Origin: a virus
Taxonomy: Duplodnaviria; Caudoviricetes
Length of the DNA: 64,000 nucleotides
IMG/VR virus record: IMGVR_UViG_3300015608_004971
Direction: 5' to 3' (one strand)
Below the pieces are notes generated by a model that did not search any database, was not told the DNA's origin, and worked only from the letters and a program-made list of their open reading frames with translations. Shown here piece by piece: positions 13,274-63,948 of this stretch. The position numbers and the translations under genes were made by a program. Within the stretch, counting starts at the first letter, position 1. Each line of letters begins with the position of its first letter.

Positions 13274-16200
13274 ATGTTTAAAATAGCACATATATCTGAT
13301 ATTCATATTCACAATTATAAAATGCTTGATGAACAAAAACAAGTATTTGAAAAATTATATGAATCTTTAAGAGAAGAAAAGCCAAATTATATATTTTTAA
13401 CTGGTGATGTTTTTCACGTCAAAACAAACATAACACCAGAAGCATATGAAACTTGTTATAATTTTTTTCTATCATTATCTGATATAACAGATGTTCATAT
13501 GATTATTGGAAATCATGACATTTCCTTATCAAACAAAGGAAGACTAGATAGCATAACACCAGTTTTTAATGCGGTTAAAAAAATAAAAGACAATATATAT
13601 TTTCATAAATATACAGGCACATTTTCTTTAAATGATGAGACACAAGTCTATGTATTGTCTTTTTTGGATAAAGTATATGAAAAGCAAAAATTTGAGCTAG
13701 ACAATAATAAAATTAATATTGCACTTTATCATGGCGGAGTAAAAGGAGCTATGACCGATTCAGGCTGGATTGTTCCTCATGGCGACGTTGACTTAAAAAC
13801 ACTAAGAAATTTTGATTATGGTTTGATTGGCGATATCCATAAGGCAAATCAATCTGTTGATGGTCTTGGAAGAATTCGCTATGCAGGTTCTTTATGTCAA
13901 AATACTTTTGGTGAAGATAACGATAAAGGATATCTAATTTGGGAGATTGAAAATAAAGACGACTATGATGTTCGTCATATTCATATTCCAAATCCAAAAC
14001 CATATATAACAATCCATATCGATAAAGATGGTGATATTTTTAATGTAGAAAAAATATCAAAGAATTGCAGACTTAGAGTAACGTCAGAATTACCAGAAAT
14101 AAATGTAAAATCTATTCTGCATGAGTATCAAGAAAAATTTGCACTAGATAGTGTTACTTTTATTAACAAAAAACAAAATCAAGTTGGCGAAACTAACATA
14201 AAAAATTATCGCGATGAAGAATCGCAAGTATCTTTAATAAAAGAATTTTTTGAAGGAAAAAATGTTGATGATGAAACCTTAAATAAGATTATTTATATAA
14301 ATAATGAAATATATAAAGAAATTTCTTCAGAGCAAGAAATAAATCGTCATATTAACTGGAAGCTCTTAAAATTAGAGTGGTCAAATTTATTTAATTATGG
14401 TGAAAATAATTTTATTAATTTTGAAAATAGAGAAGGTCTATATGGTCTTTTTGGAAAAAATTACTCTGGAAAAAGTTCTGTAATTGATGCGCTACTATTT
14501 GCAATTTATGGAACAACATCAAAAAATATTAGAAAAAATCTTAATATATTAAATAATACAAAAAATACTGGTTTTGCAACAGTTTATGTTGATATAAGCG
14601 GTAAAAAATATAAAATTCATAGAACCTTAGAAAGATACCAGAAAAAAATAAAAGGAATTTCAACTGATGATGCAAAATCAAATGTAGATTTTTTCTTAAT
14701 GGAAAGTGACAAGTTAGAAAATTTAAATGGTTCAGAAAAATTTGATACAGATAAAATTATTTCAAAATATTTTGGTGGTATTGATGATTTTTTGACAACA
14801 TGTTTGTCATCACAAAATGGACAATTTTCCTTCATTAATGAAGGGTCGACAAAGAGAAAAGAGATATTAGCAAAATTTCTTGATATAGAGTTCTATGATG
14901 CTTGCCATAAAGCTGGCAAAGAAAAATTTTCGTCTTATAAATCAATATTCGAAAAATATAAGATGAGAAAGTTTGATGATGAACTTCTTGTTCTTGAAGA
15001 ACAAAGAGTTTTATTGAGTCAAGATATAAATGCCCTTGAGGATAAAAGAAAAGAATTGCTCGCATTAATTTTAGATACACAAGCCGAAGAACATCTCCAG
15101 AATTCTTTAATTTTCAAGGCAAAACAAGAAAAAGAAATTAATTTATTATCAACAAGAGATCTAACAAACGAACTTTATGAAATAGATAAACAAATTTCTC
15201 TTCTTGATAAGAAAACATTAGAAGATAATATTATTCTTTTTGATTATGCATCATCAAAAATTAATGAATATAAAAATTCTATTTTAATTAATGAAAAAGA
15301 TTTAAGTCTTTGTAAGAAAGATCAAAATGATTTAAAAGGCTTACCATGTACCGAACAGATGAAAACAGTTTGTCCGTATGTTTCAAAAGCAAAGAGCAAT
15401 TCAGATAGAATTTCTTTACTAGAAGAATCTTTAAGGAAAAATAAAGCATTTTTAGATGACTTATCTGGAAAATTTGATAATCTTAAAATTCTTAAAGCAA
15501 ACTCTATATCAAAATTAGGTGAACTCAACGCTTTATTGGAAAGAAAAAAGATATTTGAGACGAATTTATCGAAATTAAAAGTACAACTTATTTGGTTAGA
15601 AAAAGAATTAAATGGTTTTTCTTCGTCGTCTGACGACGAAGAAAAATTTAATAAATTTGAAAAAGTTAAAAGCGACAATTTAGAATTAACTCAAAAAATA
15701 AATGATATGAATAGAGAGCTTGGAATTGTTATGCAAAAAATTTCATCAACAAATATAGAAAAAAATGATTATGAAATTTGTAGACAAAATTTTCATGCAT
15801 ACGAATTATACTGCGATGCAGTTCATTCAAATGGTATTCCTTACATGATTATTAAATCAAATATTAATATTGTTAATTCTGAACTTGAAAAGGTGCTTGG
15901 TTCTATTTGCGATTTTACTGCCAAATTTGAGCCAATAGAAAATAAGTTAGATATAAATCTATTTTCTCCAGGTTTAAACATAACAAGACCAATAGAAAAT
16001 GGCTCTGGCGCTGAAAGAACCTTGGTTTCTATGGCAATAAGAACTGCATTGACAAATATTACAACTTTGCCAAAATCAAATCTATTTATATTGGATGAGC
16101 CAGGAACAGCACTTGATATTTCATCAATGAAAGGTTTGACAAAATACCTTGAAGAAATGAAAAACTACTTTGATTTAACACTCTTAATAAGTCACATAGA

Positions 16201-16276
16201 TTATCTAAAAGATTCAGTGGATCAAAGCATAGAAGTTCAAACAAATAGTGATGGCTTAGCTTTTATCCAATATTAA
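13274..16276 (+). CDS. Fused SbcD/Mre11 nuclease - SbcC/Rad50 ATPase (T4 gp47+gp46-like)
   Basis: N-terminal DIH, GDVF, GNHD, GDIH phosphoesterase motifs; Walker A GKNYSGKS; coiled coil; GSGAE signature; Walker B ILDEP; ISH. Confidence 0.9.
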   Translation: MFKIAHISDIHIHNYKMLDEQKQVFEKLYESLREEKPNYIFLTGDVFHVKTNITPEAYETCYNFFLSLSDITDVHMIIGNHDISLSNKGRLDSITPVFNAVKKIKDNIYFHKYTGTFSLNDETQVYVLSFLDKVYEKQKFELDNNKINIALYHGGVKGAMTDSGWIVPHGDVDLKTLRNFDYGLIGDIHKANQSVDGLGRIRYAGSLCQNTFGEDNDKGYLIWEIENKDDYDVRHIHIPNPKPYITIHIDKDGDIFNVEKISKNCRLRVTSELPEINVKSILHEYQEKFALDSVTFINKKQNQVGETNIKNYRDEESQVSLIKEFFEGKNVDDETLNKIIYINNEIYKEISSEQEINRHINWKLLKLEWSNLFNYGENNFINFENREGLYGLFGKNYSGKSSVIDALLFAIYGTTSKNIRKNLNILNNTKNTGFATVYVDISGKKYKIHRTLERYQKKIKGISTDDAKSNVDFFLMESDKLENLNGSEKFDTDKIISKYFGGIDDFLTTCLSSQNGQFSFINEGSTKRKEILAKFLDIEFYDACHKAGKEKFSSYKSIFEKYKMRKFDDELLVLEEQRVLLSQDINALEDKRKELLALILDTQAEEHLQNSLIFKAKQEKEINLLSTRDLTNELYEIDKQISLLDKKTLEDNIILFDYASSKINEYKNSILINEKDLSLCKKDQNDLKGLPCTEQMKTVCPYVSKAKSNSDRISLLEESLRKNKAFLDDLSGKFDNLKILKANSISKLGELNALLERKKIFETNLSKLKVQLIWLEKELNGFSSSSDDEEKFNKFEKVKSDNLELTQKINDMNRELGIVMQKISSTNIEKNDYEICRQNFHAYELYCDAVHSNGIPYMIIKSNINIVNSELEKVLGSICDFTAKFEPIENKLDINLFSPGLNITRPIENGSGAERTLVSMAIRTALTNITTLPKSNLFILDEPGTALDISSMKGLTKYLEEMKNYFDLTLLISHIDYLKDSVDQSIEVQTNSDGLAFIQY

Positions 16277-29695: not shown

Positions 29696-31111
29696 ATGGT
29701 ATGTAGAAACAAATATAATAATCTTATTAAATCAAATAGACCGATAAGTCTTATATGTGAAATATGTGGAAAAGAAAATAAAAATGAGATTGGTCTTGCT
29801 GCGCATATTGGAAATGCTCATATAATTAAATTTCGAGACTATCTCGTTCAGTATTATCTTGATGGAGTGAAGCCTTCTTGTGCATACGAAGGATGTAATA
29901 AAGAGACACAATATCGTAATGGAAAAGATGCAGGATTCTATCGGTTCTGCCCAGAACATAATCATTTAGGAAGAACTGAGTGGGCCAAAAATAATGGATT
30001 TGGTGCTCTTATTGATCCAAAAACAAATAAAGGAAAAACAAAAGAAACATGTGAATCAATTAAATCCGCCTCTTTAAAAAGAAAATTAAAAGAGGAAACT
30101 TTTAATCTTTATATAAAGAAAATAAAAAAGAAATTTAAAATAGATTTAAAATATCAAGAATACATGTCAGCAAAACAATTAATTACTTGTTTTTGTAAAA
30201 AATGTAATTCTAAACACGATTCGACATTTGAGTCGTTCAGACGGGATAATGTTCGTTGTTTTAAATGCAATCCAAATGGCTCTAATGCAGAGAAAGATTT
30301 TATTGAAGAAATTATGAAAAAATTTGATTTATCATTTGAAGATGTAATAAGAAATAGCAGAAATATTATTGCACCACATGAAATAGATCTTTTTATTCCA
30401 AAATATAATATTGGAATCGAATATCATGGACTTTATTGGCATTCTTATCCAAATAAAACAAAAACATATCATCAAGAAAAAGCTTTATCTGCCCTAAAAA
30501 ATGGAAAGCAATTATTGCAATTCTTTTCTGATGAAGTTAATCTTAAAAAAGATATTTTATTGTCTATTATCGCAAACAAAATCAATAAATCAGAAAAATA
30601 TGATGCAAGAAAGATGAAAATAAAAAAGATTTCAGCAAAAGAAGCTGGCGCGTTTTATGAAAAAACTCATTTATCGGGCCGAGGTAGATTAAACGATAAA
30701 TATAATTATGGTCTTTTTCTTGATGATAAATTGATGTCATGTTTATCTCTTGGTAAATTTGTTTCTGTTTCTGGTGCGATGGAAATAATGCGTTTTTCTA
30801 ATGAGCTCAATTGTAATGTTCGTGGTGCGTTTTCTAGATTATTATCATTCTTTATTAAAGACGAAAATTATTCAGGCGATATTTATTCATATTGTGATCT
30901 TCGTATTGGAAACGGTTCTGTTTATATTGCCAATGGTTTTTCTTTATTGAAGACAACACGCCCTGATTATTGGTATACCAATAATAAAATTCGTGAGCAT
31001 CGCTTTAAATATCGAGCACAAAATGGTGTTTCGGAAGCGTCTTTTGCGAAAATGATGAATGTATCTGCAATTTATGGTGCTGGCTCGTATCTTTTCAAAA
31101 AGACTGTTTAA
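29696..31111 (+). CDS. Hef-like free-standing homing endonuclease (Zn fingers + Vsr/DUF559-like nuclease + GNAT-like C-terminus)
   Basis: CEIC..H...H and CKKC/CFKC fingers; EIDLFIPKYNIGIEYHGLYWH; ARK..., GAFSRLL, SYCDLRIGNG.VY...GF. Confidence 0.75.
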   Translation: MVCRNKYNNLIKSNRPISLICEICGKENKNEIGLAAHIGNAHIIKFRDYLVQYYLDGVKPSCAYEGCNKETQYRNGKDAGFYRFCPEHNHLGRTEWAKNNGFGALIDPKTNKGKTKETCESIKSASLKRKLKEETFNLYIKKIKKKFKIDLKYQEYMSAKQLITCFCKKCNSKHDSTFESFRRDNVRCFKCNPNGSNAEKDFIEEIMKKFDLSFEDVIRNSRNIIAPHEIDLFIPKYNIGIEYHGLYWHSYPNKTKTYHQEKALSALKNGKQLLQFFSDEVNLKKDILLSIIANKINKSEKYDARKMKIKKISAKEAGAFYEKTHLSGRGRLNDKYNYGLFLDDKLMSCLSLGKFVSVSGAMEIMRFSNELNCNVRGAFSRLLSFFIKDENYSGDIYSYCDLRIGNGSVYIANGFSLLKTTRPDYWYTNNKIREHRFKYRAQNGVSEASFAKMMNVSAIYGAGSYLFKKTV

Positions 31112-52779: not shown

Positions 52780-55032
52780 ATGGATATTTCAAGAAAAATT
52801 TTATCTGATATTACACATCATATGAAGTATGCAAAATTTAGACCGAGCGACTTCAGGAGAGAAACATTTGAGGAAACTGTTGATCGAAATGTGGCGATGC
52901 ATTTGAAGAAATATCCTCATCTTGAGCAAGAGATTAGAGACGCATATAAATTTGTTTATGAAAGAAAAGTTCTTCCCTCTATGAGATCAATGCAATTTGC
53001 AGGAAAAGCAATAGAAGTGTGTCCATCAAGACAGTACAATTGTAGTTATCTTGCTGTAGATAATGTTCATTCATTTAGTGAAATTATGTTCCTATTATTG
53101 GGAGGAACAGGTGTGGGTTTCTCAGTACAAAGTCATCATATTGAAAATTTACCAGAAATCCGCAAACCAAATACAAAAAGAACAAGAAGATATCTAATTG
53201 GTGATTCAATTGAGGGATGGGCAGATTCTATCAAAGCTTTAATGAAAAGTTATTTTGACGGAAGTTCAAAGATAATTTTTGATTTTACTGATATTAGACC
53301 AAAGGGGGCACTTCTTATAACTGCTGGCGGTAAAGCGCCTGGTCCGCAACCACTTAAAGAATGTTTAATGAAAATTGAGGGACTTCTTGATACAAAAGAA
53401 AATGGAGATAAACTAACTTCAATCGAAGTTCATGATATAGTTTGCTATATAGCCGATGCTGTACTGGCAGGTGGAATTAGAAGAAGTGCGTTGATTTCTT
53501 TGTTCGATGCAGACGATCAAGAAATGATTTCTGCAAAAACAGGAAATTGGTGGGAAACGAATCCGCAAAGAGGCAGAGCAAATAACTCTGCTGTCGTTTT
53601 AAGACACAAAGTTACAAAAGATTTTTTTATGCAACTTTGGGAAAGAGTAAAGCAGTCTGGTTCTGGTGAGCCTGGTATTTTTTTGACAAACGATAGAGAC
53701 GTTGGAACTAACCCTTGTAAGCCGCTAAGATCAACAATCTTAACAAAAGAAGGTTATATCACTTTTGCTCAAGCACTAGAAAAAGATCATCTTGAGGTTA
53801 TGGGAATTGATGGCAAATGGAAAAAAGCCTCAAAACCATTCAAAACAGGAACTGACAGGACAATAACACGCTTTACTCTTTCAAATGGTCATTTTCTCTA
53901 TGGAACACCAAATCATAGACATTTAGACAATAATGGAATATGGCGAGAAATGAAAGATATGAATGTTTATGATCTTTTAAGATCACAGGATAGAAAAAAT
54001 CCATTAGAAATTGTAGAAATAGTTGAAGATTTTTCAATAGAAGATGTTTATGATATTACTGTTTATGATGAAAGTCACGCATTTTATGATACTGGCGTTG
54101 TAACACATAACTGTGCTGAAATTTCTTTAAAAAATTGTGGTTTTTGTAATTTAACTGAAGTTAATGTAAGCGATCTTGAATCCCAAGAAGATTACGAGAA
54201 TAGAGTTCGTTCTGCCGCATTCATAGGAACACTTCAGGCGTCTTATACAGATTTTCATTATCTTCGTGATATTTGGAAAAGAAATGCAGAAAAGGAAGCA
54301 CTTCTTGGCGTATCTATGACTGGAATTGCATCAAACTTGATCTTCAATATGGATATCGAAAAAGCAGCAAAAGTAGCAGTACAAGAGAATAAAAGAGTAG
54401 CAAAACTGCTAGGAATAAACCCAGCAAGAAGAGTTACCACAACAAAGCCATCAGGTACATCATCATTAATATTGGGAACATCAAGCGGAATTCATGCATG
54501 GCATAGTGAATATTATATTAGACGTATTCGTGTTGGAAAAAATGAGGCAATATATCCATATCTCAAAACAAATCACCCAGAATTAGTTGAAGATGAATAT
54601 TTTAGACCACATGATACAGCAGTAATTTCTGTACCACAAAAAGCGCCAGATGGATCACTATTGCGTTCTGAATCACCAATTAATTTTCTTGAGAGAGTTA
54701 AAGCTGTCCATGATAAATGGATTAAACCAGGTCACATTAAAGGTGAAAATACACACAATGTTTCTGCAACAATTTCAATAAAAGATAATGAATGGGATGA
54801 TGTTGGCGAATGGATGTGGCAAAATAGAGATAGCTATACAGGATTGAGCGTGCTTCCTTTTTCAGAGCATTCATATGTGCAAGCGCCTTTTGAAGAGTGC
54901 TCAAAAGAGGAATATGAACGACTGTTAAGCTCACTACAAAATGTAGATTTATCTCAAATTTTTGAGACAGAAGATGACACAGATTTACAAGGCGAACTAG
55001 CATGTGTTTCTGGCAATTGTGAAATTAAATAA
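52780..55032 (+). CDS. nrdJ: Class II (B12-dependent) ribonucleotide reductase containing an intein
   Basis: YNC, GTGVGFS, GGIRRSALI, TNP|CAEI, CNLTE, KPSGT, C-terminal CVSGNC; no beta-subunit gene nearby. Confidence 0.9.
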   Translation: MDISRKILSDITHHMKYAKFRPSDFRRETFEETVDRNVAMHLKKYPHLEQEIRDAYKFVYERKVLPSMRSMQFAGKAIEVCPSRQYNCSYLAVDNVHSFSEIMFLLLGGTGVGFSVQSHHIENLPEIRKPNTKRTRRYLIGDSIEGWADSIKALMKSYFDGSSKIIFDFTDIRPKGALLITAGGKAPGPQPLKECLMKIEGLLDTKENGDKLTSIEVHDIVCYIADAVLAGGIRRSALISLFDADDQEMISAKTGNWWETNPQRGRANNSAVVLRHKVTKDFFMQLWERVKQSGSGEPGIFLTNDRDVGTNPCKPLRSTILTKEGYITFAQALEKDHLEVMGIDGKWKKASKPFKTGTDRTITRFTLSNGHFLYGTPNHRHLDNNGIWREMKDMNVYDLLRSQDRKNPLEIVEIVEDFSIEDVYDITVYDESHAFYDTGVVTHNCAEISLKNCGFCNLTEVNVSDLESQEDYENRVRSAAFIGTLQASYTDFHYLRDIWKRNAEKEALLGVSMTGIASNLIFNMDIEKAAKVAVQENKRVAKLLGINPARRVTTTKPSGTSSLILGTSSGIHAWHSEYYIRRIRVGKNEAIYPYLKTNHPELVEDEYFRPHDTAVISVPQKAPDGSLLRSESPINFLERVKAVHDKWIKPGHIKGENTHNVSATISIKDNEWDDVGEWMWQNRDSYTGLSVLPFSEHSYVQAPFEECSKEEYERLLSSLQNVDLSQIFETEDDTDLQGELACVSGNCEIK
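53716..54111 (+). mobile_element. Mini-intein (132 aa) at the RNR active-site NP|CxE motif
   Basis: Starts CKPLRS, block B TPNH, VYDITV, ends VTHN, +1 Cys. Confidence 0.9.
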
Positions 55033-59403: not shown

Positions 59404-59875
59404 AAATAAAATTCTAAATCTAGATGATTATAAAAAAGAATTTCCAAAAATAATATTTTTAAGATATCAAGATACAATATATTTTGATGAACTTCTAAAA
59501 AGTAGCTATTCTTTTGCCGATTTATTAGAAAAATCAAATAAAATTTTAAATGAAATAAATATAAAATTTCCAAATATAAAAAATGAAGATATTATTTTTA
59601 ATTTTGTTCAATGTTATGATCATAATGATGATATATCTGGTGTAAAAAGCCTAAATATCTCAGTCAAAGATGAAGAGACTGATGAAGAATACGAAGAGAG
59701 GGTAAAAACACAGTTTAAATATTATTTAAAAGATAAAGAAAGAGAACAAAAAGAAAAAGAACGTAAAAAGCAAGATAAAATAAAAATTGAAGAGCTAGAG
59801 TGGGAAACTTATTTAAAACTTAAAAGTAAATTCTCTAATAAAGAAAAAAAGGATATAGATGATGTTTCAAAATAA
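59393..59875 (+). CDS. Hypothetical protein
   Basis: Likely start ATG 59393 (AAGGA RBS); charged coiled-coil C-terminus. Confidence 0.55.
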   Translation: MKNKNKILNLDDYKKEFPKIIFLRYQDTIYFDELLKSSYSFADLLEKSNKILNEINIKFPNIKNEDIIFNFVQCYDHNDDISGVKSLNISVKDEETDEEYEERVKTQFKYYLKDKEREQKEKERKKQDKIKIEELEWETYLKLKSKFSNKEKKDIDDVSK

Positions 59876-62669
59876 AAAATTTGTTGGTCTTCATGCTCAC
59901 GATTGTTTTTCAATTTTTGATGGGTTTGGATATCCAAGCGAGCATATTGATTATGCTGTATCTAATGGTATGGATGCTCTTGCTGTAACAAATCACGGCA
60001 ATATGGATTCTCTTTCTTATCAAGTTTTACATGCAAAGAAAATTAATTCTGAGGGTATTAATTTTAAGCCAATTTATGGTGTTGAAGCGTATTTTGTTCC
60101 TTCTCTATTGGATTGGAGAGAAGCTTATGAAAAAGCAAAAGAAGAAAAGAAAGTAAAAGACAGTGCAGATGATGAAAAAATGTCTGTTGAAGATGAGGAA
60201 CAAACAAAATCTGCTGAAAAATCGTTTTTAAAGAAACGTCACCATCTTGTCTTACTTGCTATGAATGAAACTGGATTGAAAAATATTTTTAAACTCGTTT
60301 CCATGTCACATCAGGCAGAAAATTTCTATTCATATCCAAGAATTGACTTTGAAATGTTAAAAAAATATAACGACGGCGTAATATGTCTTCAAGCTTGTCT
60401 TGGCGGCTATCTTGCAAAAGCTATCTGGGAGAATAAAGATAAAGATAGAGAAACCATCAAAAATGAAATGACAAAAAGAGCTAAACAGTTTGTTGATATT
60501 TTTGGTGATAGATATTATCTAGAATTACAATGGAATGCAATCCCCGAACAACATCTTTTAAATAAAATATCTCTTGAAATTGCAAAAGAAAATGGAATAA
60601 AATTTGTTTCGACAGCAGATTCACATTACCCAACGCCAGATTCTTGGAAGCAACGGGAAATATATAAAAGACTTGGATGGCTTGGAAATAAACCAGATTA
60701 TTCTATAGATGATCTTCCAAAAACCAGAGAAGAGCTCAAATATGAAATTTATCCAAAAAATTATGAGCAAATGTTTGATGCTTATAAAAAATATTCTAAA
60801 ATATGCAACGAAGAATATAATGAGCAAGACGTCATTCAATCTTTAGATGAAACAGCAGATATTGCCTATAATAGAATAGAAACATTTTATCCCGATTCAA
60901 AGGTAAAACTTCCACAATTTCTCTTGGATAAAGATAAAAAGCCAATTCAACAATTGGCTGAAATCTGCATTCAAAAAATGAAAGAATTAAAATTAGATAA
61001 GAATAATGATTATATTGAAAGAATTCATAAAGAGCTTGATGTCATAAATAAAAGAAATTTTGCTGCTTATTTTATAACAATGAAAGCAATATCTGACGAA
61101 GCAAGACAAGTACAATTGTGTTCACCCGGAAGAGGTTCTGCCGCTGGTTCTCTTATAGCGTTTCTTTGTGGAATAACAACGATAGATCCAATACAATATA
61201 ATCTTCAATTTGAAAGGTTTCTATTAGAAGAAGGGACAGACTATCCAGACATAGACTTTGACTGTTCAGAACCAATGGAGTTAAAAGAAATTTTAACTGA
61301 AAAGTGGGGGAAAGAAAAAGTAATTCCAATTACAAATTTCAATAAACTTAAATATCGTTCTCTTATTAAAGATGCATCAAAGCTTCTTGGAATAGACTAT
61401 CAAGAGGTTAATGCTGTCACAAGCATTATGCTTGCAGAGGCGACACCTGCTGCAAAAAGAAAAAACGACATAAAAGCTGGTGCATATGAGCCAACATATG
61501 AAGAGGTTGTTGAATTTTCACCATCATTAAGAGAATATTATAAAAAATATCCTGATGTTGAGAAGACAATTAATGGTCTATTGGGACAAATTAAGTCTCG
61601 CTCTCGTCATGCTGGCGGAATTGTACTCGGTGACGATTTAACTACAGAAATGCCCTTAATATCGTCAAAAGGCGTAATGCAAACCCCTTGGTCAGAGGGT
61701 CAACACGTTAGACATTTAGAGCCACTTGGTTTTATTAAATTTGATATTCTCGGAATTGATACTCTAAATATGATTTCCGATTGTATTCGACGTATTATCC
61801 AAAAAGAAGATAAAAAAGAAGAAGTTTCTTTTCAAGAAATAAAAGATTGGTATATTAAGTATTTGGACCCATCAAATAATAATTTTGATGATAAAAAAGT
61901 ATATGAAAATGTTTTTCATAATGAAAAATGGCCAGGAATATTTCAATTTACAAAGCCAGATGCACAATCATTCTGTTCAAAAGCAAAACCATATTCAATT
62001 GCTGATTTATCTGCGATCACATCAATCTATAGGCCGGGACCAATTTCGGCTAATGTTCATAATGAATATGTACGCGTAAAATATGAAAAAGAAGAAAATA
62101 AGTTTATGAAAGATGATAGAATAAAAACAATCTTATCAGAAACAAGTGGCTTTCTTATCTATCAAGAACAAATTGCATCACTAACTGCACTCTTGGGAAA
62201 GAATATTTCTTTGAATGAAGGAAATTATTTAAGAAAACTTTTGACAAAGAAAGGCACAGGAAAAGGTCTGGATAAGATTGAGCTTATTAAAGAAAAATTT
62301 CTTGAAGGTGCGAAAGAAAAAGGCTTGACCAATTCTATAGCTAATGAGCTTTGGGAAAATATGGAAAATTTTGCGACGTATGGCTTCAATAAATGTCTTG
62401 ACGGGGAAACAACTTTTGTAATGACAAAAGAATCTGGCAAGAAAAAAATAAAAGATGTTCAAGCAGGCGAACATGTTCTTTCAAAAAATGGCTTTGTTAA
62501 AGTTCTTGATATTATGAATCAAGGAAAGAAAAAATTAGTAAAATTAACGACAGCATCAGGCAAAGTTCTCTGTCTAACAAAAGATCACAAGGTTGATACG
62601 GAAAAAGGAATGATGAGACTGGAAGATGCTTTAAAAAATAAATTAAAAATAAGAATTTTAGAAGAATAA
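59859..62669 (+). CDS. dnaE: DNA polymerase III alpha, N-terminal part fused to split-intein N half
   Basis: PHP motifs (HAH..FS.FDG, TNHG, HLVLLA, DSHY); GRGSAAGS; PDIDFD; HAGG; KFDILG; GIFQF; YQEQ; YGFNK|CLDG. Confidence 0.95.
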   Translation: MMFQNKKFVGLHAHDCFSIFDGFGYPSEHIDYAVSNGMDALAVTNHGNMDSLSYQVLHAKKINSEGINFKPIYGVEAYFVPSLLDWREAYEKAKEEKKVKDSADDEKMSVEDEEQTKSAEKSFLKKRHHLVLLAMNETGLKNIFKLVSMSHQAENFYSYPRIDFEMLKKYNDGVICLQACLGGYLAKAIWENKDKDRETIKNEMTKRAKQFVDIFGDRYYLELQWNAIPEQHLLNKISLEIAKENGIKFVSTADSHYPTPDSWKQREIYKRLGWLGNKPDYSIDDLPKTREELKYEIYPKNYEQMFDAYKKYSKICNEEYNEQDVIQSLDETADIAYNRIETFYPDSKVKLPQFLLDKDKKPIQQLAEICIQKMKELKLDKNNDYIERIHKELDVINKRNFAAYFITMKAISDEARQVQLCSPGRGSAAGSLIAFLCGITTIDPIQYNLQFERFLLEEGTDYPDIDFDCSEPMELKEILTEKWGKEKVIPITNFNKLKYRSLIKDASKLLGIDYQEVNAVTSIMLAEATPAAKRKNDIKAGAYEPTYEEVVEFSPSLREYYKKYPDVEKTINGLLGQIKSRSRHAGGIVLGDDLTTEMPLISSKGVMQTPWSEGQHVRHLEPLGFIKFDILGIDTLNMISDCIRRIIQKEDKKEEVSFQEIKDWYIKYLDPSNNNFDDKKVYENVFHNEKWPGIFQFTKPDAQSFCSKAKPYSIADLSAITSIYRPGPISANVHNEYVRVKYEKEENKFMKDDRIKTILSETSGFLIYQEQIASLTALLGKNISLNEGNYLRKLLTKKGTGKGLDKIELIKEKFLEGAKEKGLTNSIANELWENMENFATYGFNKCLDGETTFVMTKESGKKKIKDVQAGEHVLSKNGFVKVLDIMNQGKKKLVKLTTASGKVLCLTKDHKVDTEKGMMRLEDALKNKLKIRILEE
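62394..62669 (+). mobile_element. Split intein N half (IntN, 91 aa)
   Basis: Block A CLDGETTFV, block B LTKDHKV, then stop TAA. Confidence 0.88.
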
Positions 62670-62671
62670 AA

Positions 62672-62972
62672 ATGAAAAAAATCAAACTAGAATGCTTAGA
62701 GTGCAAGCAAGAAGTTACATCTAATACGATAAAAATGCATACCAAAAATAAAATTAGCAATAGAAATAGATGGTGATTTTTGGCATGTTAATGAGCATGC
62801 AGGCTATTCTTTAAAATATGCAAGCCAAAAGAAGAACTTAATTAATGATAAATTAAAAAATGATTTTCTTATAAAAAATTACTGGACAATTATACGTTTA
62901 TGGGAAGCTGATATAAAAGCTGATAATAAATTATGTGTAGAACAAATAAAGGAAAAAATAAATGAATTATAA
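62672..62972 (+). pseudogene. Decayed Vsr/DUF559-like endonuclease between the dnaE halves
   Basis: ATG 62672 MKKIKLECLECKQE... stops at 62776. The +1 frame from 62739 reads IPKIKLAIEIDGDFWH...NDKLKNDF...WTIIRLWE...EL* with no start codon. Confidence 0.75.
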
Positions 62973-63948
62973 TTCAAAATTTGATGAGATTCTTTTTGTT
63001 GAAGAAATTGATGAAAATGAAACATATGATCTTGAGGTTGATAGCGAAGATCATACATTTTTTGCAAATGGCATTTCTGTTTCAAATTCTCATGCGGTCT
63101 CATATAGTATTGTTTCCTATCACTGCGCATATCTATTTACACACCACCCCGACGAATGGATTATGGCTTTTTTAGATAAAACAGTAGAAAATGAAAAAGA
63201 AGAAGCAATCAATATTGTTAAAAGTTTAGGCTACGAGATTAGACCTGTCTCAATTATTAATTCAAAAAATGAATGGACAATGGATGAAGATAAAAAATTA
63301 ATTCAACCATTTACCTTCATTAAAGGTCTTGGTGAAAAAGCCATTGAGCAAATTTATATTGGACGTCCTTTTTCTAAAATAGAAGATTTTATTTTTAATG
63401 ATAAAATCACTTATTCTAAATTAAATAAAAAATCATTAGACGTCTTAATTAGATCTGGTGCTCTTTCTGAATTGATGGATGAACGTTTTACTGGCCAAAA
63501 ACATTTTTGGAAATCAGTAGCAGAAGACCGTCCAAAAACTATAAAAGCTTTTAATGAAAATATTGAAAAATATAAAGATGAAGGTGATTTTAGTTTAGAA
63601 GAAAAAATTGATTTTAAAATATCTTTAACAGGAACATATCCTTTTGATCTTGTTGTAGATTATAAATCATTAAATATTTTAAAGAAAAACGAAATTAATT
63701 CTATTTCTGAGTTTGATTATGAAAATCCATTTGTGTGGTTTTTGGTAACAGACAAAGTAGAAAAAACCACACGAAATGGTAAAAAGTACACCATACTAAC
63801 AGTGACAGACTTGACAAATAAGATGGTTGAGGTAAAATGTTGGCATGAAACTGGTTCGATTCAAAAACATGCAATTTATCTATCGAAGTTAACTCATGAT
63901 GAGTGGGGCTTCTCATCAAGAAGTGAGAAAAATTTTAAGAAAATTTAA
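62962..63948 (+). CDS. dnaE: Split-intein C half (42 aa) fused to DNA polymerase III alpha C-terminal part
   Basis: TYDLEV...HTFFANGISVSN|SHAVSY; HhH IKGLGEKA; OB-fold KTTRNGKKY; own ATG with AAGGA upstream. Confidence 0.92.
   Translation: MNYNSKFDEILFVEEIDENETYDLEVDSEDHTFFANGISVSNSHAVSYSIVSYHCAYLFTHHPDEWIMAFLDKTVENEKEEAINIVKSLGYEIRPVSIINSKNEWTMDEDKKLIQPFTFIKGLGEKAIEQIYIGRPFSKIEDFIFNDKITYSKLNKKSLDVLIRSGALSELMDERFTGQKHFWKSVAEDRPKTIKAFNENIEKYKDEGDFSLEEKIDFKISLTGTYPFDLVVDYKSLNILKKNEINSISEFDYENPFVWFLVTDKVEKTTRNGKKYTILTVTDLTNKMVEVKCWHETGSIQKHAIYLSKLTHDEWGFSSRSEKNFKKI
63811..63838 (+). promoter_or_regulatory. Possible sigma70-type promoter in the dnaE 3' end
   Basis: TTGACA-N16-TAAAAT upstream of the next gene. 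Confidence 0.35.

Follow-up and report, generated by a model that had tools for sequence, protein, structure and literature searches.

The window analysed here is the whole stretch of 64,000 nucleotides from the IMG/VR virus record IMGVR_UViG_3300015608_004971 (Duplodnaviria; Caudoviricetes), and it carries a DNA polymerase gene, dnaE, which is divided between two open reading frames (ORFs), each ending or beginning with one half of an intein. The context was that of a tailed phage, with a terminase, a portal, a major head protein, a sheath, a tape measure and a ribonucleotide reductase (RNR). All genes lie on the + strand, and the GC content is about 30%. The upstream ORF (59859-62669) encodes 936 aa, corresponding to 845 aa of DnaE and the 91 aa N-terminal half of the intein (IntN). 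The downstream ORF (62962-63948) is in a different frame, possesses its own ATG at 62962 and encodes 328 aa, corresponding to the 42 aa C-terminal half of the intein (IntC) and the last 286 aa of DnaE. Between the stop of the IntN ORF and the ATG of the IntC ORF there is a gap of 292 nt. The features of the locus are listed in the table below.

Table. Features of the divided dnaE locus in the window (HEG, homing endonuclease gene; RBS, ribosome-binding site).
Feature	Position	Strand	Description
dnaE N-extein, 845 aa	59859..62393	+	PHP, Pol III alpha and fingers; ends ..ENFATYGFNK
IntN, 91 aa and stop	62394..62669 (coding 62394-62666, stop 62667-62669)	+	starts CLDGETT; Cys1, block B LTKDH, GKKK motif
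5' stub of the dead HEG, 34-codon ORF	62672..62776	+	first ~23 codons are the CxxC...H zinc-finger start; remainder is out-of-frame read-through
3' fragment of the Vsr-like/EDxHD HEG, 79 codons	62733..62972 (stop 62970-62972)	+	in another frame than the stub; no start codon
RBS AAGGA of the IntC ORF	62949..62953	+	8 nt before the ATG at 62962; inside the endonuclease relic
IntC, 42 aa	62962..63087	+	block F YDLEVD..DH; ends ..FFANGISVSN
dnaE C-extein, 286 aa and stop	63088..63948	+	starts with Ser+1 (SHAVSY); HHH_6 and OB-fold regions

In the N part, Pfam recognised the PHP (PF02811), DNA_pol3_alpha (PF07733) and finger (PF17657) domains, with weak Hint-type matches in the 91 aa tail, and in the C part HHH_6. 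On the PHROG 405 (DNA polymerase) profile, the N part covered positions 41–793 and the C part positions 792–1044. The matches meet at 793/792, so the exteins abut, and the removal of the 91 + 42 intein residues would restore an uninterrupted polymerase of 1131 aa (845 + 286). A scan of the 292-nt gap for promoters and terminators showed nothing above the shuffled background; since a terminator-like site is absent from the gap, the two ORFs are likely co-transcribed. The 4.1-kb region had no blastn match in GenBank phages.

An initial annotation, made from the sequence alone, had described the two ORFs, their frames, the ATG and RBS of the second one and the partition into 845 + 91 and 42 + 286 aa, and it proved exact to the residue. 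The same was true of its charge counts. IntN contains 18 K and 2 R for 6 D and 7 E (20 K/R vs 13 D/E, net charge +7), and IntC a single K for 5 D and 7 E (1 K vs 12 D/E, net charge −11). The annotation also anticipated that splicing would restore a GFNKSH motif. The intein-less relative P0022, whose identity to the N- and C-exteins of the window is 78% and 80%, respectively, reads through the site as ..ATYGFNKSHAVSY... With eight IMG/VR relatives it represents the empty site, where DnaE is continuous (..YGFNKSHAVSY.., exteins 78–80% identical). In the following, a slash marks a splice junction, the present site being GFNK/SH.

The residues expected of a class 1 intein were found at their places. 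The block A nucleophile, Cys1, directly follows the N-extein (GFNK/CLDGETT), and the block B motif TxxH is present as LTKDH in IntN, TxxH being found in 7/7 of the IntN sequences from the same site. Block F with its Asp and His, the terminal Asn and Ser+1 can be read as YDLEVD..DH..VSN/S, and the D.E, H and SN/SH positions are invariant across 19 IntC sequences. The insertion is precise and in frame, the removal of the intein restoring the host protein both on the profile (PHROG 405, 793/792) and by comparison with the empty sites of P0022 and L001. The penultimate residue, in block G, is a Ser in place of His, and the same Ser is found at 99/112 of the family junctions at this site. A penultimate His is common in inteins without being obligatory, and inteins devoid of it can splice. 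Cis alleles of the same site with a penultimate Ser must splice, because otherwise the polymerase would not be made. It is improbable that the intein is dead and that its halves merely clamp the two DnaE pieces non-covalently, giving a two-chain polymerase: the absence of the penultimate His (VSN) would agree with such a situation, but none of Cys1, LTKDH, the Asp and His of block F, the terminal Asn and Ser+1 is missing, and they are conserved across diverse alleles, including the cis ones. With exteins that abut on the profile and an intein-less relative that reads through the site, a trans-splicing split intein at GFNK/SH is well supported by the sequence.

The gap between the two halves is a degraded homing endonuclease gene (HEG), not a plain spacer, a point absent from the initial annotation. 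The 5' stub starts at the position where the HEG starts in the related locus L014, and its similarity to the HEGs of L014, L015 and L017 is short and at the level of the pattern only. The 3' fragment reads ..IPKIKLAIEIDGDFWH...YWTIIRLWEADI.., with the motifs IEIDGDFWH and IIRLWEADI kept, and its stop lies within an 11-nt overlap with the IntC ORF. Its identity to the C-terminal 63–75 aa of the intact endonucleases from L014, L015 and L017 is 43–54% (tblastn E 1e-14 to 1e-21). The latter are 286–318 aa in size, begin with a CxxC..H finger and are encoded at the equivalent place of related split dnaE loci. Pfam gave weak matches of the relic to MTES_1575, DUF559 and Vsr. The list of ORFs of at least 30 aa contained none in the frame of the 3' fragment. 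About 215 internal HEG codons out of roughly 318 are gone, and what is left of the gene lies in two different frames.

The catalytic residues of Vsr are D51, H69 and D97, with an invariant Glu at position 62 (Dassa et al. 2009, PMC2677866). In the EDxHD family the Asp equivalent to D51 is the essential metal ligand, and the catalytic domain of I-Bth0305I spans residues 167–266 (Taylor et al., PMC3239194). In the intact HEG copies ..YTIDIAIP.. precedes ..LEVDGDYWH, with a spacing of D, E at +11 and H at +18, by which the Asp of TIDIA corresponds to Vsr D51; its equivalent in I-Bth0305I is D196. The homology of the relic starts at IPKIKLAIEIDG, and the TIDIA Asp, upstream of it, has been deleted. 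Since the catalytic Asp falls within the deletion, the nuclease is dead in any reading. Compared with EDxHD/Vsr-like HEGs such as I-Bth0305I (PMC3239194), the fragment retains the C-terminal LWE helix and, of the motif, the positions E, W-H and D, whereas it has lost the first catalytic Asp, a continuous reading frame and the DNA-binding region at the N-terminus. Neither a complete EDxHD catalytic domain with its metal-binding Asp nor an intact ORF of about 270–320 aa with an N-terminal DNA-binding region is present, the 34-codon stub and the 79-codon fragment being all that is left. It is most unlikely that the relic still functions, whether as a regulator or as a mini-nuclease produced through +1 frameshifting. 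The fragment does keep E..H..D of the EDxHD motif together with the C-terminal helix (IEIDGDFWH ... INDK), and the stub and the fragment would join over an A-rich stretch, but the loss of some 215 codons removed both the DNA-binding region and the TIDIA Asp (Vsr D51, I-Bth0305I D196), and the frame of the fragment has no start codon. Programmed frameshifting was rejected on the same grounds, the catalytic Asp and the DNA-binding region being gone.

Elsewhere in the window, directly after the major head protein gene, a 471-aa ORF (29696-31111, + strand) showed similarity to these endonucleases. The N-terminal ~300 aa can be aligned over their whole length with the L014 HEG (23% identity, BLASTP E 2e-10), with a CxxC finger start and a nuclease motif IGIEYHGLYWHS corresponding to LEVDGDYWH of the intact copies, a His replacing the second acidic residue. 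At the C-terminus, ~140 aa match the Pfam family Mom (PF25680, E 5e-7). This ORF may represent the fusion of a homing-endonuclease-like domain with a Mom-like one.

In addition to the empty site, the relatives displayed cis, split and uncoupled alleles at GFNK/SH. The closest relative (L013/P0020, exteins 85–86% identical) possesses a contiguous mini-intein of 132 aa, to which IntN of the window aligns over residues 1–91 and IntC over residues 88 (approximately) to 132. As the two halves align to both parts of the cis intein, the difference between the two phages is essentially the insertion of a stop, an endonuclease relic and an ATG in the loop. Split alleles with an intact HEG of 286–322 aa between the halves were observed in L014, L015, L017, L018/L019 and the P0004 contig, most of these HEGs matching DUF559 or MTES_1575 in Pfam. 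In L014 and L018/L019 the 3' end of the HEG overlaps the start of IntC by 14 nt, much like in the window, which is itself the split allele with a relic HEG. In L020 (606-6167) the halves are uncoupled, the 2.8 kb that separate them being occupied by seven unrelated genes (NUDIX, PTH2 and others), and the intein begins with Ser1 (GFNK/SLFSSEK). This layout corresponds to "genomic uncoupling" in the model of 2009 (Dassa et al., PMC2677866). The net charge of IntC in the family ranged from 0 to −14 and was negative in 18/19 sequences.

The abundance of such alleles was estimated by a full HMMER search of 50% cluster representatives, with IntC and 30 extein residues as the query and a threshold of E ≤ 1e-3. 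It returned 994 cluster representatives. Among the best 150 of these, 64 were split-like, with the junction within the first 60 residues, and 48 were cis inteins with an internal junction, mostly corresponding to mini-inteins of 124–149 aa at [FY]N[KARH]/..SN/SH. Judging from these matches, hundreds of alleles, both cis and split, occupy the GFNK/SH site. In GenBank phages, tblastn with the C-half detected only distant DnaE (<35% identity). An apparent IntC extension in Gordonia phage Hanem and in a faecal contig was spurious, the sequence there being an uninterrupted GFNRAH or AFNKSH.

These alleles bear on the possibility of an assembly or sequencing artefact, in which the true allele would be a contiguous cis intein, or one with an intact HEG, and the stop, the frame change and the deletion would be errors. 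The closest relative does have a cis intein, and the frame change of the relic falls in an A-rich stretch. The 292-nt gap, however, is clearly homologous to the 3' ends of the HEGs that other split alleles carry at this place, of which a cis intein would have none; a loss of about 650 nt is no homopolymer error; and split C-halves starting with Met-IntC are abundant, as shown by the 64 of the best 150 representatives. Such an artefact has very little probability, and the locus is best read as a genuine split allele.

Two of the relatives carry further breaks. In L013 (3953-8187) a second, unrelated split intein was found (..LLGQPRS/CFSDTT.. and ..NKIISN/CGRHAGG), with 35 nt between the halves and no endonuclease gene; the window has no intein at this site (..GQIKSRSRHAGG..). 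In L006 (1622-6909), and in the identical-looking L007, DnaE is in three pieces. At the first break, the halves of a gp41-1-like split intein (CLTGDS.. and an acidic IntC) enclose an intact Vsr-like HEG of 301 aa. At the second (..FMTKDAGSGYITDNG..EIMSV and a stop, then MKITNITHLPV..PDIDYD), neither Cys1 nor any intein block can be recognised, and this break may represent either a split intein of an atypical kind or a fracture devoid of an intein.

The PDB search indicated the affinity of the intein. The gp41-1 structure 6QAZ matched IntN (E 6.7e-10, residues 11–87), IntC (E 1.6e-3, residues 95–126) and the L013 cis intein (E 6.6e-12), compared with about 1e-3 for Npu-type DnaE inteins. By the significant similarity of its two halves to gp41-1, the equivalent position of the split and the same basic IntN and acidic IntC, the window intein is a homologue of gp41-1, the closest solved structure. 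The two (PDB 6QAZ and 6RIZ for gp41-1) share Cys1, Ser+1, a KKK patch in IntN, an acidic IntC and the split point (IntN of about 88–91 aa, IntC of about 37–42 aa). They differ in the host protein, DnaE here and the gp41 helicase there, in the penultimate residue (Ser vs His), in block B (TKDH vs SEEH) and in the −1 residue, a Lys here compared to the native Tyr reported in the gp41-1 crystal structure paper.

The cyanobacterial Ssp and Npu DnaE inteins are naturally split and splice in trans, in the same host protein and in the same finger-domain hot spot, where the cyanobacterial intein occupies insertion point a of PolIII-alpha (Novikova et al. 2016, PMC4760082). Their wild-type junction, AEY/CFNK (PMC3759424), lies four residues upstream of YGFNK/SH, as the initial annotation had it. 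They are not inserted at the same place and have Cys+1 instead of Ser+1, an acidic IntN and a basic IntC, that is, the opposite polarity, and halves at separate loci without an endonuclease relic. The similarity is distant (about 1e-3). In site and lineage the window intein is unrelated to the Npu/Ssp inteins, with E values of 7e-10 to 7e-12 for gp41-1 and about 1e-3 for the Npu type.

The fractured genes described by Dassa et al. in 2009 (PMC2677866) provide the closest parallel in organisation. Their 26 loci include DnaE-1, DnaE-2 and DnaE-3, with split inteins and free-standing endonuclease genes, a Vsr-like one in the DnaE-2 locus, at DnaE sites different from the cyanobacterial one. The pathway they proposed runs from HEG invasion through splitting and HEG loss to uncoupling. 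In both cases a phage-type replication gene is broken at an intein, the halves flank a free-standing Vsr-like HEG whose 3' end overlaps the downstream ORF, and the split is at the canonical endonuclease insertion loop. This layout of halves on adjacent ORFs around a HEG is present in the window, the HEG being a relic, and with an intact HEG in L014, L015, L017 and L018. What differs is that the window HEG is deleted and frame-broken, a stage between the loci with an intact HEG and the one HEG-less gp41 locus. The likeness to DnaE-1, DnaE-2 and DnaE-3 concerns the organisation of the loci.

Several points that the initial annotation had presented as new are published or widespread. A reversed charge polarity, with a positive N-intein and a negative C-intein, was reported for gp41-1 and gp41-8 in 2009 (PMC2677866) and later shown structurally for gp41-1. 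Split inteins in phage-type DnaE, in that case with a Vsr-like HEG between the halves, were also reported in 2009 (PMC2677866), and the search for the site and allele returned the hundreds of alleles mentioned above. A natural split intein with Cys1, LTKDH, block F, Asn and Ser+1 is indeed what the site appears to hold, but Ser+1 itself is not new, the native C-junction of gp41-1 being SSS. The 34-intein library of Pinto et al. has no DnaE intein, and a limited literature search gave no sign of a biochemical test of a phage DnaE split intein at GFNK/SH. The suggested orthogonality to existing ligation tools is plausible with regard to Npu; with regard to gp41-1 it seems doubtful, because the window intein is a gp41-1 homologue with the same polarity.

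Starting from the observed anatomy and homologies, from the empty, cis, split and uncoupled alleles of the relatives and from the dead state of the HEG, we infer an order of events, a co-transcription and a splicing reaction which would be as follows. The ancestral state would be a gp41-1-like class 1 mini-intein inserted in frame at the conserved GFNK/SH motif, where the DnaE fingers end. The intein loop would then have received, at the canonical endonuclease position, a free-standing HEG of the Vsr-like (EDxHD) type, which brought a stop codon, an ORF of its own and, overlapping with it, the RBS and the ATG from which the downstream part is translated, thereby converting a cis intein into a split one. 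Later, in the window phage, an internal deletion of about 215 codons would have killed the HEG, taking away the first catalytic Asp along with the DNA-binding region and shifting the frame, the split being kept. In the present state, the two genes would probably be co-transcribed, the basic IntN and the acidic IntC would associate electrostatically, and Cys1, TxxH, the Asp and His of block F, the terminal Asn and Ser+1 would carry out trans-splicing, giving the 1131-aa DnaE with its native GFNKSH junction.

The window very probably contains, as its sequence suggests, a "fractured" phage dnaE gene, split by a HEG inserted in a gp41-1-like intein, the HEG being since dead and the halves trans-splicing. 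Some points weigh against this interpretation. The splicing is predicted from sequence, and the penultimate residue is a Ser instead of the usual His, although Ser is the norm in the family. For the cis homologue, AlphaFold modelling from a single sequence gave a pLDDT of 34, and the fold is deduced from the homology to gp41-1. The proposed order, with the cis state first and the split later, comes from one cis relative. The locus is known from its assembly, and the window represents 64 kb of a 198,888-bp contig, outside of which a second, intact dnaE may lie.

The locus leaves the knowledge of inteins, of phage replication and of split-intein electrostatics unchanged. Its layout is known since 2009 and common in metagenomes, and the traits which seem unusual are the published traits of gp41-1. 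The endonuclease relic and the natural cis/split pair are mildly interesting additions. The locus constitutes a clean, fully assembled late stage of the fractured-gene pathway, with the split intein kept and the HEG dead, and together with its relatives it covers the whole series at a single DnaE site, from the empty site and the cis mini-intein, through splits in which the HEG is live or a relic, to halves that drift apart. This is useful teaching and phylogenetic material for intein evolution, and possibly a further Ser+1 split intein for protein ligation. A more ambitious view, which we hold only tentatively and consider rather unlikely, is that the window and the 85%-identical L013 form a natural cis/split pair of one intein allele, accompanied by sister lineages with an intact HEG, a relic HEG or uncoupled halves, and that the split intein, with its Cys1, penultimate Ser, Ser+1, K-rich IntN and very acidic IntC, might splice rapidly in trans and be orthogonal to Npu DnaE as well as to gp41-1. 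If true, the cis/split pair would allow a direct reconstruction of the fixation of a split intein after the death of its endonuclease.

Two other genes of the window were noted. A weak IntC-like match in the RNR gene (54019-54111, E 0.04) was rejected, the 750-aa RNR fitting its profile end to end without room for an intein. Further upstream, a single 1000-aa ORF (13274-16276, + strand) matched phrog_100 (SbcD-like) over residues 1–357 and phrog_77 (SbcC-like) over residues 220–994, and the SbcD-like and SbcC-like nuclease subunits appear to be fused in this ORF.

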